64,000 nt of DNA from a bacterium (GTDB lineage: Bacteria > Chloroflexota > Dormibacteria > Aeolococcales > Bog-877), in NCBI GenBank assembly GCA_021816695.1, contig JAKAXE010000002.1, positions 28,914 through 92,913 on the forward strand. Reading direction: 5' to 3'. The notes under the pieces are model-generated. The model made no database searches. It had not been told where the DNA came from and saw only the letters and a list, made by a program, of their open reading frames with translations. Below are positions 59,614 to 64,000 of this stretch, piece after piece. A program made the translations under genes and the position numbers. Numbering within the stretch: the first letter of the stretch is position 1; every line of letters begins with the position of its first letter.

Positions 59614-60753
59614 TCAGCTGCGCCCCGCCCGGGCTCTGGCCTCCGCCGCGGAGCGCTCCCATCGCTCCTCCACATTGCCGTACCGCCAGATGAGCAGCGC
59701 GGCGGCCCAGGTGAGGATGAAGAGGCCCACGATCACGAATCCGGCCGTGTTGATCGAGAAGCCTGCGGCAAAGTTCCAGACCCCGCCGTGGAGGTGGAGC
59801 TCAGACTGCAGCACCTGGATGAGCTCGATGGTGCCGATGATGAGCGCCACCACCACCGAGATCCCGGTGATGGCTATGTTGTAGTAGACCTTGCGCAGCG
59901 GCCTTGAGAAGGCCCAGCCGTAAGCGTAGTTCATGAAGGCCCCGTCGAAGGAGTCCATCATCGACATCCCCGCCGCAAAAAGAAGTGGGAGGGAGATGAT
60001 GGCGTAGAGGGGAAGTCCAGCCGAGGTCGCGGTACCCGCCAGCACCAATAGGGCGACCTCGGTGGCAGTGTCAAACCCCAGCCCGAACAGGACCCCCACC
60101 GGGTACATCTGCCAGGGCTTGGTGATGGACCGCGCCAAAGGGCCGAGGAACCGGAACATGAATCCCCGGCTGTTCAACTGGGCCTCGAGCTCGGAATCGT
60201 TGTACTTCCCCTGTCTCATCTCCAGGAAAATCTGCACGATGCCGATCAGCACCATGAGGTTCAAGCCGGCGATCAGGTAGAGGAATCCGCCGGAGACCAA
60301 GGTGCCGAAGAAGTTCCCGAAGGACTGCAGGGTGGAATGGCTGTTGTTCACCGCGCTGGAAACCGCCCGGGCCGCGAAACCGATGCCCACAGCGAGGGAG
60401 AAGACGATCGTCGAGTGACCCAGAGAGAAGAAGGTACCGATGCTCAGAGGACGCTGCCCTTCGGCCTGGAGCTTCCGGGTGGTGTTGTCGATCGCCGAGA
60501 TGTGATCCGCGTCGAAGGCGTGGCGGAGTCCGAAGGAGTAGGCGAGGATTCCGAGTCCTAGCCCGAAGACCTTGGGTCCCACGGAGTAGTGATGGGCCAC
60601 CGCCAGCAGGAGCAGCCCGAATCCCAGCACATGGAGGCCAACGATGACGACCACCATGAAAATGGCCTGCCGGCGCTGGTCGGGACTGAACCCTCGGATC
60701 CAGCCAACGAGGCTGGGCCGAGATGTCTGGACGGCAACGGGCGGGCTGGCCAT
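59614..60753 (-). CDS. NiCoT-family nickel/cobalt permease (HoxN/HupN/NixA-like)
   Basis: Signature HAFDADHISAIDNTTRKL in TM2, plus the GLGFDTATE block. Start placed at ATG comp(60751-60753), which has SD GGAGGAG 7 nt upstream. The track start at 60819 lies inside the predicted promoter. Confidence 0.85.
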   Translation of the reverse strand: MASPPVAVQTSRPSLVGWIRGFSPDQRRQAIFMVVVIVGLHVLGFGLLLLAVAHHYSVGPKVFGLGLGILAYSFGLRHAFDADHISAIDNTTRKLQAEGQRPLSIGTFFSLGHSTIVFSLAVGIGFAARAVSSAVNNSHSTLQSFGNFFGTLVSGGFLYLIAGLNLMVLIGIVQIFLEMRQGKYNDSELEAQLNSRGFMFRFLGPLARSITKPWQMYPVGVLFGLGFDTATEVALLVLAGTATSAGLPLYAIISLPLLFAAGMSMMDSFDGAFMNYAYGWAFSRPLRKVYYNIAITGISVVVALIIGTIELIQVLQSELHLHGGVWNFAAGFSINTAGFVIVGLFILTWAAALLIWRYGNVEERWERSAAEARARAGRS

Positions 60754-60784
60754 CAACTGGCTCCTCCAAGGCTCAAGTGGTGGG

Positions 60785-60813
60785 ATGCTAGCACACATGC
60801 CACTTAGTGGCAA
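60785..60813 (-). promoter_or_regulatory. Candidate promoter of the NiCoT gene (TTGCCA-N17-TAGCAT) overlapped by the palindrome CCACTTAGTGG
   Basis: Minus-strand reading: TTGCCA (60808-60813), a 17-nt spacer, TAGCAT (60785-60790). The 5-1-5 palindrome at 60800-60810 overlaps the -35/spacer. The segment is visibly less GC-rich than its surroundings. Confidence 0.4.
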
Positions 60814-60866
60814 CTGCAATGCTAAGGCATCAACGCCTCGGACGAGGCTCCCTGAGCGGGCCGGAA

Positions 60867-62186
60867 CTAGCGCCCCAGCTCGCTGGCGCAGACCTCCCTA
60901 AGCTGCGAAAGCGACACCCGGACCTGCTCCATGGTGTCCCTACGGCGCACGGTCGCCGCCTGGTCCTCGAGGCTCTCGAAGTCAATCGTGATCGCCAGCG
61001 GAGTGCCGATCTCGTCCTGCCGCCGGTACCGCCGGCCGATGGCCTGGGTCTCGTCGTACTCGGTGGCGAAGCTGGAGCGGAGATCCGCCTCCACTCGCCT
61101 GGCTATCTCCATCAGCTCGGGCCGCTTGGAAAGCGGCAGGACGGCCACCTCGAAGGGTGCCACCCGGGGGTCGAGGCCGAGCACGACTCTCGTCTCCCCT
61201 CGAACTTCCTCCTCCCTGTAGGCGTCCAGCAGGAGCGCCAAAAAGGTGCGGTCCACTCCCAGGGAGGGCTCCACCACATAGGGCAGAAAGCGAGCTCCGG
61301 TGGCGGGGTCGGTGTACTGCAGGTCCTTGCCGCTCATCTCCTGGTGGCGGCGGAGATCGTAGTCCCCTCGGCGGGCGATCCCCTCCAGCTCGCCCCAGCC
61401 CCAGGGGAATCGATACTCGATATCCGTGGAGGCGAGGGCGTAATGGGCCTTCTCGTCCTCACCATGAGGCCGGAAACGCAGGCTGTCGGCGCTGAGCCCG
61501 ATCGAACGATGCCAACCCATGCGGCGCTCGCACCAGTACTCGAACCAGGTGGCGTCGTCCTCCGGTGAGCAGAACCACTCCAGCTCCATCATCTCCAGCT
61601 CACGGAGACGGAAGATGAAGTTGCCGGTGGTGATCTCGTTGCGGAAGCTGCGCCCGATCTGGGCGATGCCGAAGGGAACCCGCTGGCGCGAGCTGGTGAG
61701 AACGTTCTTGAAGTTGACGAATATGCCCTGAGCCGTCTCCGGGCGGAGGTAGACGACACTTCCGGCGTCCTCCACCGCGCCCATGTGGGTCTTGAACATC
61801 AGATTGAACTGGCGGGCGGCACTGAGCTCACCACCACAGTTGGGGCATCGGTCTCCCGACAGCTGGTCGGCCCGCCAGCGCTGATGGCACTCCCCAAGGC
61901 AGTCGACCATGGGATCGCTGAAGTTGGCCAGGTGGCCGGAGGCCTCCCAGACCCGAGGGTTCATCAGGATCGCCGCCTCCAGCCCCTCCACGTCGTCGCG
62001 GAGATCCACCACCTCTCTCCACCAGAGGTCCCGGATGCGGCGCCGAAGGCGGACCCCCAGGGGCCCGAAGTCGTAGACGGCGTTCAGGCCGCCGTAGATC
62101 TCGCTGCTGGGGAAGACGAAGCCCCGCCGCTTGCAGAGCGAGACCAAAAGGTCAAGCCGGTTCGAATCTGCCACTCCACTCCTCAC
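60867..62186 (-). CDS. glyQS: Glycine--tRNA ligase (dimeric alpha2 GlyQS type)
   Basis: LCKRRGFVFPSSEIYGGL..., class II motifs (FRNEITTGNFIFRLRELEMMELEWF) and a C-terminal anticodon-binding domain. GTG at 62186. A GTG 12 nt downstream has the better SD (GAGGAG). Confidence 0.92.
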   Translation of the reverse strand: MRSGVADSNRLDLLVSLCKRRGFVFPSSEIYGGLNAVYDFGPLGVRLRRRIRDLWWREVVDLRDDVEGLEAAILMNPRVWEASGHLANFSDPMVDCLGECHQRWRADQLSGDRCPNCGGELSAARQFNLMFKTHMGAVEDAGSVVYLRPETAQGIFVNFKNVLTSSRQRVPFGIAQIGRSFRNEITTGNFIFRLRELEMMELEWFCSPEDDATWFEYWCERRMGWHRSIGLSADSLRFRPHGEDEKAHYALASTDIEYRFPWGWGELEGIARRGDYDLRRHQEMSGKDLQYTDPATGARFLPYVVEPSLGVDRTFLALLLDAYREEEVRGETRVVLGLDPRVAPFEVAVLPLSKRPELMEIARRVEADLRSSFATEYDETQAIGRRYRRQDEIGTPLAITIDFESLEDQAATVRRRDTMEQVRVSLSQLREVCASELGR

Positions 62187-62278
62187 CCGCCCCAGGAAGA
62201 CGCGGTCATTCTACGGAACGGGGGACAGCTGAACTGGTCCCTCCTTGGGTGGCCGAAAGCGGCTGGTACGATCGCCTG

Positions 62279-64000
62279 GTGCTCCGCCTCTTCGACACCC
62301 GCACACGGGCGGTGCGCCCGTTGGTCCCGCTGCGCGATGGGACGCTGCGGATGTACAGCTGCGGTCCCACCGTCTACCGCTCGGTGCACATCGGCAACCT
62401 GCGCACCTACCTGCTGGCCGATTGGATCAAGCGCGTGGCCCGGGCCCAGGGCTGGCAGGTCCTCCACGTCAAGAACATCACCGACGTCGGACACATGCGC
62501 CAGGAGATGGCCGAGCGCGGCGGGGACAAGGTGATCGCCGCCGCCCTGGCGGCGGGCAGGACGCCAAGGGAGATCGCCGACCACTTCGAGCAGGAGTTTC
62601 ACGAGGCCGAGGCCAAGCTACTGATCGAGCCGGCGGACGTCTTTCCCCGGGCCACCGACCACGTGCCCCAGATGCTGGAGCTCATCGCCAGGCTTCTGGA
62701 AAGGGGCCTCGCCTACCTGGTGGACGGCACCGTCTACTTCGACACCGCCAGGCACCCGGGGTATGGGGCCCTCTCGGGGAACACCCCGGACCTCCTCCTG
62801 AACGGCGCCGGTGCCGAGGCCGACCCCGCCAAGCGCCACCCCGCCGACTTCACCCTCTGGCGGGCGGCCGACCCCGGCCGCCAGATGATGGTCTGGGACA
62901 GCCCCTACGGCCCCGGGTTCCCCGGTTGGCACATCGAGTGCTCCGCCATGTCGATGACCTACCTGGGCGAGGAGATCGACCTGCACACGGGCGGGGTGGA
63001 CAACATCTTCCCCCACCACGAGGACGAGCTGGCGCAGAGCGAGGGCGCCACCGGGGGCCGGTTCGTCCGGCACTGGGTGCACGGCCAGCACCTTCTCGCG
63101 GACGGGGTCAAGATGGCCAAGTCCCAGGGCAACGTGTACACCGTCGCCGACCTCGAGGAACGGGGCTTCGACCCCCTGGCCTTCCGCCTCCTCTGCGCCC
63201 AGGTCGGCTACCGGACGCGGCTGAACTTCACCCTCGCGGCCCTGGCCGGCGCCGAGCACGGGCTGCGCCGGCTCCGCCGCGCCGCCGCCACCAGGGAGGG
63301 CGAGGTGGACCCGGCCCGGGCGCGGGAGCTGGAGCTCGCGGTGCGGTCGGCGATGGAGGACGACCTCGACCTGCCGACGGCGGTCGCCGCCACCTTCGCC
63401 TTCGCCGCCGACTCGAAGATGACCCCGGCCACCAGGGCTGCCGGCCTCTTGGCCGCCGACCGGCTGCTGGGCCTGGCCCTGGAGCGCAGTCCCGAGGTCC
63501 CCCTAGGCGAGGGGCCCTGGACCGAGCTGGCCACCAGCCGGTCGAGGCTGCGGCAGGCGGCCAGCTTCGCCGAGGCGGATCGGACCCGCGACCAGCTTCT
63601 CACTCTGCGGGCCGTCCCCGAGGACCGTCCCGGAGGGGGCCGGCTGCGGAGAGCCACCGCCCTCGACCTGCGCCGGGGGCTGATCTCCTCACCGCAGGAG
63701 GTCCCCGATGGCAGATCGGCCCCGGACGCCCTCGAGGTCTCCGTCAGCATCGTGGCCGGCCCCTACCCCGAGGACCTGGAGCGGTGCCTCGATAGCCTGC
63801 GGCGGTACAGCAAGGGCCACGAGGTCGAGTACCTCGTGGTGGACAACGACGCCGGTCCCGAGGTGTCCAGCCTGCTCTCCCGCCTGCGGGAGGAGGAGCC
63901 GCGGCTGCGCTTCTTCCGCGCCGACCACCAGCTGGGGGAGGCGGCGGCGCGCAACCTCACCATCCGAGCCGCTCGCGGGCGAGCCATCCTCATGCTGGAC
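62279..64000 (+). CDS. cysS: Cysteine--tRNA ligase continuing in frame into a GT2 glycosyltransferase domain (3' end beyond window)
   Basis: Absent from the track because there is no stop before the window end. My translation from GTG 62279: VLRLFDTRTR...MYSCGPTVYRSVHIGNLRTY (HIGH), GWHIECSAM, FPHHEDELAQS, KMAKSQG (KMSKS), MEDDLDLPTA, FAEADRTRDQLL (CysRS C-terminal helix). After a ~27-aa linker comes VSVSIVAGPYPEDLERCLDSL...EYLVVDNDAGPE...RNLTIRAARGRAILMLD (GT2 motifs). Confidence 0.8.
   Translation, partial: MLRLFDTRTRAVRPLVPLRDGTLRMYSCGPTVYRSVHIGNLRTYLLADWIKRVARAQGWQVLHVKNITDVGHMRQEMAERGGDKVIAAALAAGRTPREIADHFEQEFHEAEAKLLIEPADVFPRATDHVPQMLELIARLLERGLAYLVDGTVYFDTARHPGYGALSGNTPDLLLNGAGAEADPAKRHPADFTLWRAADPGRQMMVWDSPYGPGFPGWHIECSAMSMTYLGEEIDLHTGGVDNIFPHHEDELAQSEGATGGRFVRHWVHGQHLLADGVKMAKSQGNVYTVADLEERGFDPLAFRLLCAQVGYRTRLNFTLAALAGAEHGLRRLRRAAATREGEVDPARARELELAVRSAMEDDLDLPTAVAATFAFAADSKMTPATRAAGLLAADRLLGLALERSPEVPLGEGPWTELATSRSRLRQAASFAEADRTRDQLLTLRAVPEDRPGGGRLRRATALDLRRGLISSPQEVPDGRSAPDALEVSVSIVAGPYPEDLERCLDSLRRYSKGHEVEYLVVDNDAGPEVSSLLSRLREEEPRLRFFRADHQLGEAAARNLTIRAARGRAILMLD

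Follow-up and report, generated by a model that had tools for sequence, protein, structure and literature searches.

A cysteinyl-tRNA synthetase fused to a GT2 glycosyltransferase in Dormibacteria and Chloroflexota, and a possible role of its anticodon-reading domain in directing sugar transfer

At the end of a 64,000-nucleotide stretch of a dormibacterial genome (GenBank assembly GCA_021816695.1, contig JAKAXE010000002.1; G000:C137:28914-92913 in contig coordinates), referred to here as the window, lies a gene that joins a cysteinyl-tRNA synthetase (CysRS) in frame to a GT2 glycosyltransferase. Comparison with several hundred relatives identifies the recurring unit, at the level of sequence, as the alpha/beta anticodon-reading domain of CysRS plus GT2, and not the cysteine-activating domain plus GT2. 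By fusion or by adjacency, this anticodon reader and its GT2 domain are found tied to a single sequence type of CysRS. It is well within reason, though we stop short of calling it probable, that the product is a bifunctional protein in which the anticodon reader delivers a glycosyltransferase to tRNA-Cys.

The plus strand carries a frame without a stop from position 62249 to the end of the window, and this frame continues for 438 nt past the edge, to C137:93351. The upstream in-frame start, GTG 62249, gives 729 residues and a second GTG at 62279 gives 719. Homologues begin with MLRL(F/Y)DT, in agreement with GTG 62279, the start chosen in a preliminary description of this DNA, and this is likely the start of the fusion gene (62279..64000, +, then the 438 nt outside the window), with a product of 719 residues. 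Residue numbers throughout follow the 729-residue frame. That a complete CysRS and a GT2 domain share one open frame, as had been described, is borne out by the frame itself and by the Pfam and NCBIfam matches.

Sequence and structural model together identify residues 1-468 as a complete CysRS of the type that combines an HIGN signature with a TDxGH insertion. The class I catalytic domain (residues 26-335; 62324..63253, +) matches Pfam tRNA-synt_1e (PF01406) at 293 bits, and the NCBIfam cysS model, TIGR00435, aligns over positions 1-465 of 466 with 363.8 bits against a cut-off of 340. The preliminary description was right about the completeness of the enzyme, but the class I signatures that it gave as HIGH and KMSKS read HIGN (residues 47-50; 62387-62398, +) and KMAKS (residues 288-292; 63110-63124, +), variants that stand-alone CysRS from many phyla also show. 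When the protein is aligned residue by residue with the E. coli enzyme, the zinc/cysteine ligands C38 (62360), C231 (62939), H256 (63014) and E260 (63026), all on the plus strand, correspond to C28, C209, H234 and E238, and W227 to W205; the domain also holds, besides this Trp, the TDVGH...GGDK insertion characteristic of the HIGN subtype. Across an alignment of 43 diverse fusions, conservation of both signatures and these five residues is complete or at least 90%, and H47, G49, N50, K288, M289 and K291 are conserved. The helical stem and anticodon-binding region with the DDLDLP block follows (63254..63517, +), aligning to E. coli CysRS and TIGR00435 despite falling under the Pfam DALR_2 threshold. 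In an AlphaFold2 (AF2) model of the whole protein, the mean predicted local distance difference test (pLDDT) is 89.6 and the predicted template modelling score (pTM) 0.88, and the top Foldseek match is 1U0B, the CysRS-tRNA-Cys complex, with a template modelling (TM) score of 0.81 over the target's 461 residues.

Measured against bacterial CysRS in general (E. coli CysS, 1LI5/1U0B; TIGR00435), residues 1-468 are thus those of a full member with all domains and motifs kept, and by every sequence criterion this part looks active. The closest subtype is that with HIGN and the TDxGH insertion (NF011108/PRK14536-like; structures 6UJD and 3SP1). What sets the fusion apart from these enzymes is a GT-A domain of about 250 residues added after the anticodon domain, and its standing as an additional copy, never the sole CysRS, in every fusion-bearing genome checked.

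The domain through which the synthetase meets its added partner is the C-terminal alpha/beta anticodon-binding domain of CysS_C type (residues 424-468; 63518..63652, +), assigned from alignment and Foldseek. Here, R435, F440, D444 and R447 (63551-63589) align with E. coli R427, W432, D436 and R439, which have been targeted as contacts of the GCA anticodon on the basis of 1U0B (PMC13449415). The four positions are 93-100% conserved among the fusions. The Pfam CysS_C model stays below threshold in the window's protein and matches its relatives. Between reader and GT2 runs a connector, defined by conservation and the model (residues 469-494; 63653..63730, +), with the consensus ISSSxDVPSxLxxPD; because it is modelled at a pLDDT of about 81-92, it is no floppy linker.

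Residues 495 to about 720 form, by sequence and model, a GT-A fold of family GT2, and the residues that nucleotide-sugar binding and catalysis would be expected to require are still in place. Its first 90 residues (495-584; 63731..64000, +) lie inside the window, where they are delimited by Pfam, the model and conservation. Pfam Glycos_transf_2 (PF00535) matches residues 507-659 with 54.9 bits against a cut-off of 23.3. The portion in the window includes VVDND with the nucleotide-binding Asp532 (63842-63844, +), ADH (D559-H560), AARN (R568-N569) and, as the last codon of the window (63998-64000, +), Asp584 of D-T-G-V-E, the segment aligned with the DxD motif; past the edge follow E588, D662, H687, H689, W692 and a C-terminal helix. 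Residues 484-729 are modelled at a pLDDT of 93, and Foldseek places this model closest to polypeptide GalNAc-transferases (TM 0.77-0.80), with resemblance also to WrtF, the nucleoside-binding AvpGT, K4CP and heparosan synthase (TM 0.67-0.80 to GT27 and GT2 structures). A profile search against Protein Data Bank (PDB) sequences aligned D584-T-G to DxD (DAD in 6P61) and the invariant D662 to the Asp of "GED" in K4CP, the latter in a weak stretch of the hidden Markov model and with R and Y, not E, at its flanks.

Conservation across the family picks out the same residues. E527, D532 (VVDN), D559-H560, R568-N569, E588, D592, R642 and E653 are conserved, as are R656-F-Y-R659-x-x-D662, H687-x-H689-x-x-W692 and a C-terminal helix with ERxRLSKRNFYRF; the D584 position is 98% acidic, and D532, H560, R568, E588, R656, R659, D662 and H689 vary little or not at all. 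With GT-A enzymes of GT2 and GT27 (GalNAc-transferases T2/T12, K4CP 2Z86, 6P61, WrtF and AvpGT), the domain has in common the fold (TM 0.67-0.80), the N-terminal nucleotide-binding Asp in VVDN and the leading Asp of DxD, and its candidate for the catalytic Asp aligns with "GED". It differs from them in D-T-[GS]-x-E for DxD, in F-R-F-Y-R-x-x-D for the "xED" context, in an H-x-H-x-x-W motif and C-terminal helix of its own, and in its coupling to a tRNA anticodon-binding domain. GalNAc-transferases pair a DxH motif with a distal His as third metal ligand, and the distal His of the fusion could serve likewise; by this analogy, metal binding by D584 together with E588 or H689 is plausible. On its sequence and model, the GT2 domain looks competent.

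To follow the spread of this architecture, we searched with the linker and GT2 part and recovered about 90 clusters at 90% identity, of 680-820 residues, that carry both PF01406 and PF00535. Their sources are Dormibacteria and Chloroflexota (Dehalococcoidia, Thermoflexales and Roseiflexaceae), the latter with 36-48% identity, and the fusion is hence not peculiar to the assembly at hand, as had been a concern. The databases label these proteins "cysteine--tRNA ligase" only. The fusion occurs in every genome of the window's family (f1) and in none of the sister family (f2). No cultured host was found, the carriers being metagenome-assembled genomes of Thermoflexales, Roseiflexaceae and Dormibacteria, and full-text search of the literature returned no description of the architecture. 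Some fusions, of 800-820 residues and from Chloroflexota (P0086-P0090, P0227, P0228), bear a His-rich tail, for example HDHPxHLxGDHPH...HxHxHWPDHSHxHPH, that the window's protein lacks; the composition of this tail suggests metal binding.

When residues 425-729 served as query, more than 500 relatives were found, most of them proteins of about 305 residues in which PF23493 (CysS_C) is followed by PF00535. The anticodon-contact signature R-x4-[WFY]-x3-D-x2-R was followed through 188 members of the family: 70 of 71 fusions carry it, as do 99 of the 117 members that have no CysRS body. Overall, some 90% of members pair GT2 with the reader. The free-standing CysS_C-GT2 genes are complete and internal to contigs of up to 1.4 Mb, and three such loci do not adjoin cysS. 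In a minority clade of 253-259 residues with a "DPGVE" motif, GT2 stands alone without the anticodon reader, in complete genes that lie beside electron transfer flavoprotein (ETF) genes and not beside cysS. Counted as fused, free-standing or both, the module is present in 94 of 401 sampled genomes and 54 of 217 genera of the phylum. The search for other fusion partners of the GT2 module yielded just truncated fusions or N-terminal extensions without a Pfam match. In a tree of the GT2 domain, the labels fused and free switch at least nine times, these labels being contaminated by truncated gene calls on short contigs.

The genome of the window also encodes a stand-alone CysRS (C97:148-1662) of 463 residues, with 438 bits on TIGR00435 and Pfam DALR_2 and CysS_C matches, so the second cysS for which the preliminary description had proposed a search does exist. 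We extended the check for other CysRS genes to about 24 dormibacterial genomes, 3 Chloroflexota reached through loci and a further 14 Chloroflexota, several of which are closed or almost closed. All of the roughly 40 fusion-bearing genomes among them hold at least one further full-length CysRS, often with an MshC-like gene too. By a conservative count, another CysRS is present in 38 of 38 fusion genomes versus 3 of 9 genomes with the free module (Fisher p = 8e-6, uncorrected for phylogeny); in the other six of these nine, which have the free module only, the TDxGH type is the single true CysRS. In the window's genus the stand-alone CysRS (L005, with relatives L101-L104 and L106) reads QIGN where the family's other genera have HIGN or HLGN. 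Gln stands where the class I HIGH motif has its first His, and this change may mean reduced activity of the plain CysRS copy in this genus.

A maximum-likelihood (ML) tree bears on the ancestry of the fused synthetase. The fused bodies are monophyletic (support 100/99), fall within the TDxGH-insertion/HxGN type, neighbour CysRS of Actinomycetota and Ktedonobacteraceae, and show no inflated branch lengths; the stand-alone copies of Dormibacteria belong to a different CysRS lineage. By its sequence, the CysRS type that combines HIGN and the TDxGH insertion is native to Chloroflexota and Actinomycetota. Some free modules sit beside a synthetase gene: in one genome (G071), the module directly adjoins cysS on the same strand, 57 nt apart, and in two (G315, G405) it adjoins cysS on the opposite strand. 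A further genome (G360) has cysS about 1.5 kb from the module, on the opposite strand and split into two frames (G360:C3:896222-897155), probably a pseudogene; an intact CysRS lies elsewhere in that genome. The module-adjacent cysS of G071, G315 and G405 is of the TDxGH type and shares a clade with the fused bodies that has a Shimodaira-Hasegawa-like approximate likelihood ratio test (SH-aLRT) value of 99; the sole CysRS of free-module genomes falls in this clade too. As the TDxGH type is the only true CysRS in six of the nine free-module genomes, the fused body derives, by a single origin, from the phylum's native CysRS.

If the fusion is a bifunctional protein of the kind proposed, the anticodon reader would dock the glycosyltransferase on tRNA-Cys (anticodon GCA), and a sugar would be transferred either to the anticodon arm of that tRNA or to another acceptor only while tRNA-Cys is bound. 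Fusion-bearing lineages would then have charging and sugar transfer in one protein, with the plain CysRS serving bulk translation. Since the GT2 domain comes directly after the anticodon domain, by way of a conserved and confidently modelled connector, it would lie close to the anticodon arm and some 70 Å away from the aminoacyl end, which would make the cysteinyl moiety an unlikely target, and an anticodon-arm nucleoside or tRNA-gated transfer a likelier one. More tentatively, the CysS_C-GT2 module could be a tRNA-Cys-specific RNA glycosyltransferase, the first in bacteria, and the fusion a dedicated second CysRS that both charges and glycosylates a pool of tRNA-Cys, an idea that we put forward as possible and would not yet favor.

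Precedents exist for parts of this proposal. To our knowledge, QTGAL and QTMAN are the only enzymes that glycosylate a tRNA, and we know of glycosylated tRNA nucleosides (galactosyl- and mannosyl-queuosine) from eukaryotes only. These eukaryotic enzymes attach galactose or mannose to queuosine-34 in tRNA-Tyr and tRNA-Asp, in the anticodon loop (PMC12518689). By analogy, glycosylation in the anticodon loop is the activity that we propose for the fusion; they differ from it in being eukaryotic, in having queuosine as substrate and in lacking a targeting domain derived from an aminoacyl-tRNA synthetase (aaRS), and tRNA-Cys has G34. Fusions of synthetases with transferases are represented by LysX of mycobacteria (LysRS-MprF) and ErdS of fungi (AspRS-DUF2156), with which CysRS-GT2 shares the logic of a duplicated synthetase coupled to an enzyme with the same tRNA as its substrate while the housekeeping synthetase is kept. 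The transferases of LysX and ErdS use the aminoacyl end of the tRNA, whereas CysRS-GT2 adds a GT-A domain of nucleotide-sugar type at the anticodon end, about 70 Å off.

Several observations weigh against a glycosyltransferase directed to tRNA-Cys. We know of no bacterial tRNA glycosyltransferase. The clade with GT2 alone indicates that the domain can work without an anticodon reader. The canonical DxD is incomplete, its second Asp being absent and the family consensus reading D-T-[GS]-[VIL]-E; this lowers the case for GT-A-like action, which is still possible because D584 with E588 or H689 could ligate a metal. Conserved charges in the GT2 domain amount to 15 basic and 18 acidic positions, and as these are not net basic, a nucleic-acid-binding surface is not evident from the sequence. 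The tRNA-Cys of the sister family, which lacks the module, differs from that of the window's family in stems and variable loop only, with identical anticodon and D loops, and the same loops with and without the module point to no target nucleotide. Finally, no transcripts of the fusion gene were found in metatranscriptome runs of the same study.

Some of these observations fit better with a protein that is a working CysRS and whose GT2 domain glycosylates a non-RNA acceptor, for instance a small molecule, a protein, or a sugar that is phosphorylated or lipid-linked; the reader would then be baggage left over from fusion or fission, or a regulatory input that makes sugar transfer depend on tRNA-Cys occupancy. 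This remains a tentative alternative, which we find credible without thinking it likely. The existence of GT2-only members as complete genes is in its favor, as are the nearest folds, which belong to protein O-GalNAc transferases and polysaccharide synthases, and the lack of net basic conservation in the GT2 domain. The anticodon contacts argue the other way: they are nearly invariant in the fusions and kept in about 85% of proteins without a CysRS body, and a reader that retains its contacts even where no synthetase is attached is hard to explain as baggage. Nor do conserved glycan, lipid or protein partner genes lie nearby.

The same departures from the GT-A consensus raise the question of whether the domain transfers sugar at all. 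It might instead be a structural or ligand-sensing appendage that modulates a specialized second CysRS, through nucleotide-sugar binding or a wider tRNA surface. The DxD motif has degenerated to D-T-[GS]-x-E, two members lack even its first Asp (GNHIE and GGHME), and F-R-F-Y-R-x-x-D takes the place of the acidic "xED" context. We nonetheless consider a loss of transfer activity unlikely, as purifying selection acts strongly on Asp532, Asp584 (98% acidic), Glu588, Asp662 and His687/His689 in two deeply separated lineages and in the free-standing proteins, and as there is no synthetase that free-standing CysS_C-GT2 could modulate.

The preliminary description had read the fusion as a possible sign of a cysteinyl-sugar pathway, in which the CysRS-like part, as in MshC, would join cysteine to an amino sugar made with the help of GT2, and the product would be a new low-molecular-weight thiol or a glycolipid that carries cysteine. 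In mycothiol synthesis, the Cys:GlcN-Ins ligase is MshC (3C8Z, 8HFM; TIGR03447). It has a homologous catalytic domain (202 bits to 3C8Z), and both it and the fusion are CysRS paralogues beside a housekeeping CysRS. In further accord with this idea, the fusion-bearing family lacks the MshC-like gene that its sister family has. Several results contradict it, and we hold it to be very improbable. The fusion scores 242.9 bits on TIGR03447, far under the cut-off of 485.1. The MshC-like paralogues of related genomes, which score best on the MshC model, are proteins of about 400 residues with HLGH and KMSKS that, like MshC itself, have no anticodon domain, whereas the fusion keeps this domain with its contacts and reads HIGN and KMAKS. 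Many fusion-bearing Chloroflexota hold an MshC-like gene as well, and this co-occurrence implies that the two are not alternatives. GT2 is linked to the anticodon reader and not to the activating domain, and no deacetylase, sugar or thiol genes lie at the flanks. An MshC-type thiol ligase was accordingly rejected on model score, domain content and co-occurrence with true MshC-like genes. The alternative offered in the same description, a housekeeping CysRS that had acquired a moonlighting domain, comes closer: the added domain is there, but the enzyme is an additional copy and not the sole CysRS of the cell.

The MshC-like paralogues are of note in their own right. They are common in the sister family (L121-L130) and in many Chloroflexota (L170, L175, L177, L179, L182, L186, L189, L194, L198, L200 and L204), with 370-383 bits on TIGR03447 against the cut-off of 485. 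Their sequences suggest a mycothiol-like or related cysteine-ligation pathway outside the Actinomycetota.

That two separate genes were merged by an assembly or frameshift error can be dismissed, as no indels occur at the junction in four runs from two studies and the identical fusion recurs in independent genomes by the dozen, single-contig ones included. These data come from Logan contigs of four public metagenome runs, one of them from a different study, in which coverage spans 63591-63796 and the remainder of the junction; the differences there are all substitutions, and neither an insertion nor a deletion occurs. The check across the junction advised in the preliminary description thus came out in favor of a genuine fusion, and a missed stop or frameshift between the domains was ruled out.

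Genomic context adds little on function. Divergent from the fusion lies glyQS, for glycyl-tRNA synthetase (60867..62186, -), and the order glyQS, fusion, recO, corC is kept within the dormibacterial family and not in Chloroflexota; the genes of this synteny, including prs, are housekeeping ones. The Chloroflexota fusion loci have no conserved neighbours in common, and no sugar or thiol genes flank the fusion at the loci examined. A search upstream of the gene for an RNA regulator (T-box and similar) found none in the intergenic region of 92 nt. Upstream of glyQS, a short-chain dehydrogenase/reductase (SDR) gene and the 3' end of an aspartate kinase gene also make for an ordinary housekeeping context, and at 59614-60819 (-) we noted, judging by eye from the sequence, a homologue of nickel-cobalt transporters of NiCoT/HoxN type. 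The free-standing loci have in common a rhomboid gene, HTH_17, a small open reading frame (ORF), a cupin and DUF3352, which is uninformative on function. In three of them (L131-L133), HTH_17 and rhomboid protease genes lie upstream and cupin and DUF3352 genes downstream, and the small ORF, of 81-115 residues without a Pfam match, follows the free-standing gene (L131:6939-7241, L132:6972-7217 and L133:6974-7321), overlapping its stop codon in L131; this ORF could be a partner.

The genome has a single gene for tRNA-Cys(GCA), at G000:C92:608-681 (-). Across the six genera of the family, tRNA-Cys is 99-100% identical over 74 nt (fully so in 19 of 23 copies; L139-L160), while proteins are about 62-70% identical. 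Exact copies of 44-50 nt of the tRNA-Cys 3' half are found at G000:C30:58138-58181 and at several sites in G004:C61, G016, G024, G019 and G022, some of them a few kilobases from the tRNA-Cys gene. Scattered copies of a tRNA 3' half are the usual footprint of integrative elements that use that tRNA as attachment site. A whole-genome ARAGORN run further listed a tRNA-Ala with anticodon AGC, unusual for bacteria, and a tRNA-SeC at C63:8396-8491.

In roughly one in four of the sampled genomes of Chloroflexota and Dormibacteria, a glycosyltransferase is joined to a reader of the tRNA-Cys anticodon, in proteins that databases list just as "cysteine--tRNA ligase" or "glycosyltransferase". CysRS paralogy alone proves a poor basis for inferring thiol-cofactor pathways. 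That fusion genomes always keep a plain CysRS provides a concrete genetic hypothesis. Were the module to act on tRNA-Cys, it would represent a new class of bacterial RNA-modifying enzyme, in which a domain of an aminoacyl-tRNA synthetase is reused as a targeting device; were the acceptor another, the lineages that carry it would still have an unexplained and strongly conserved link of cysteine decoding with sugar transfer.

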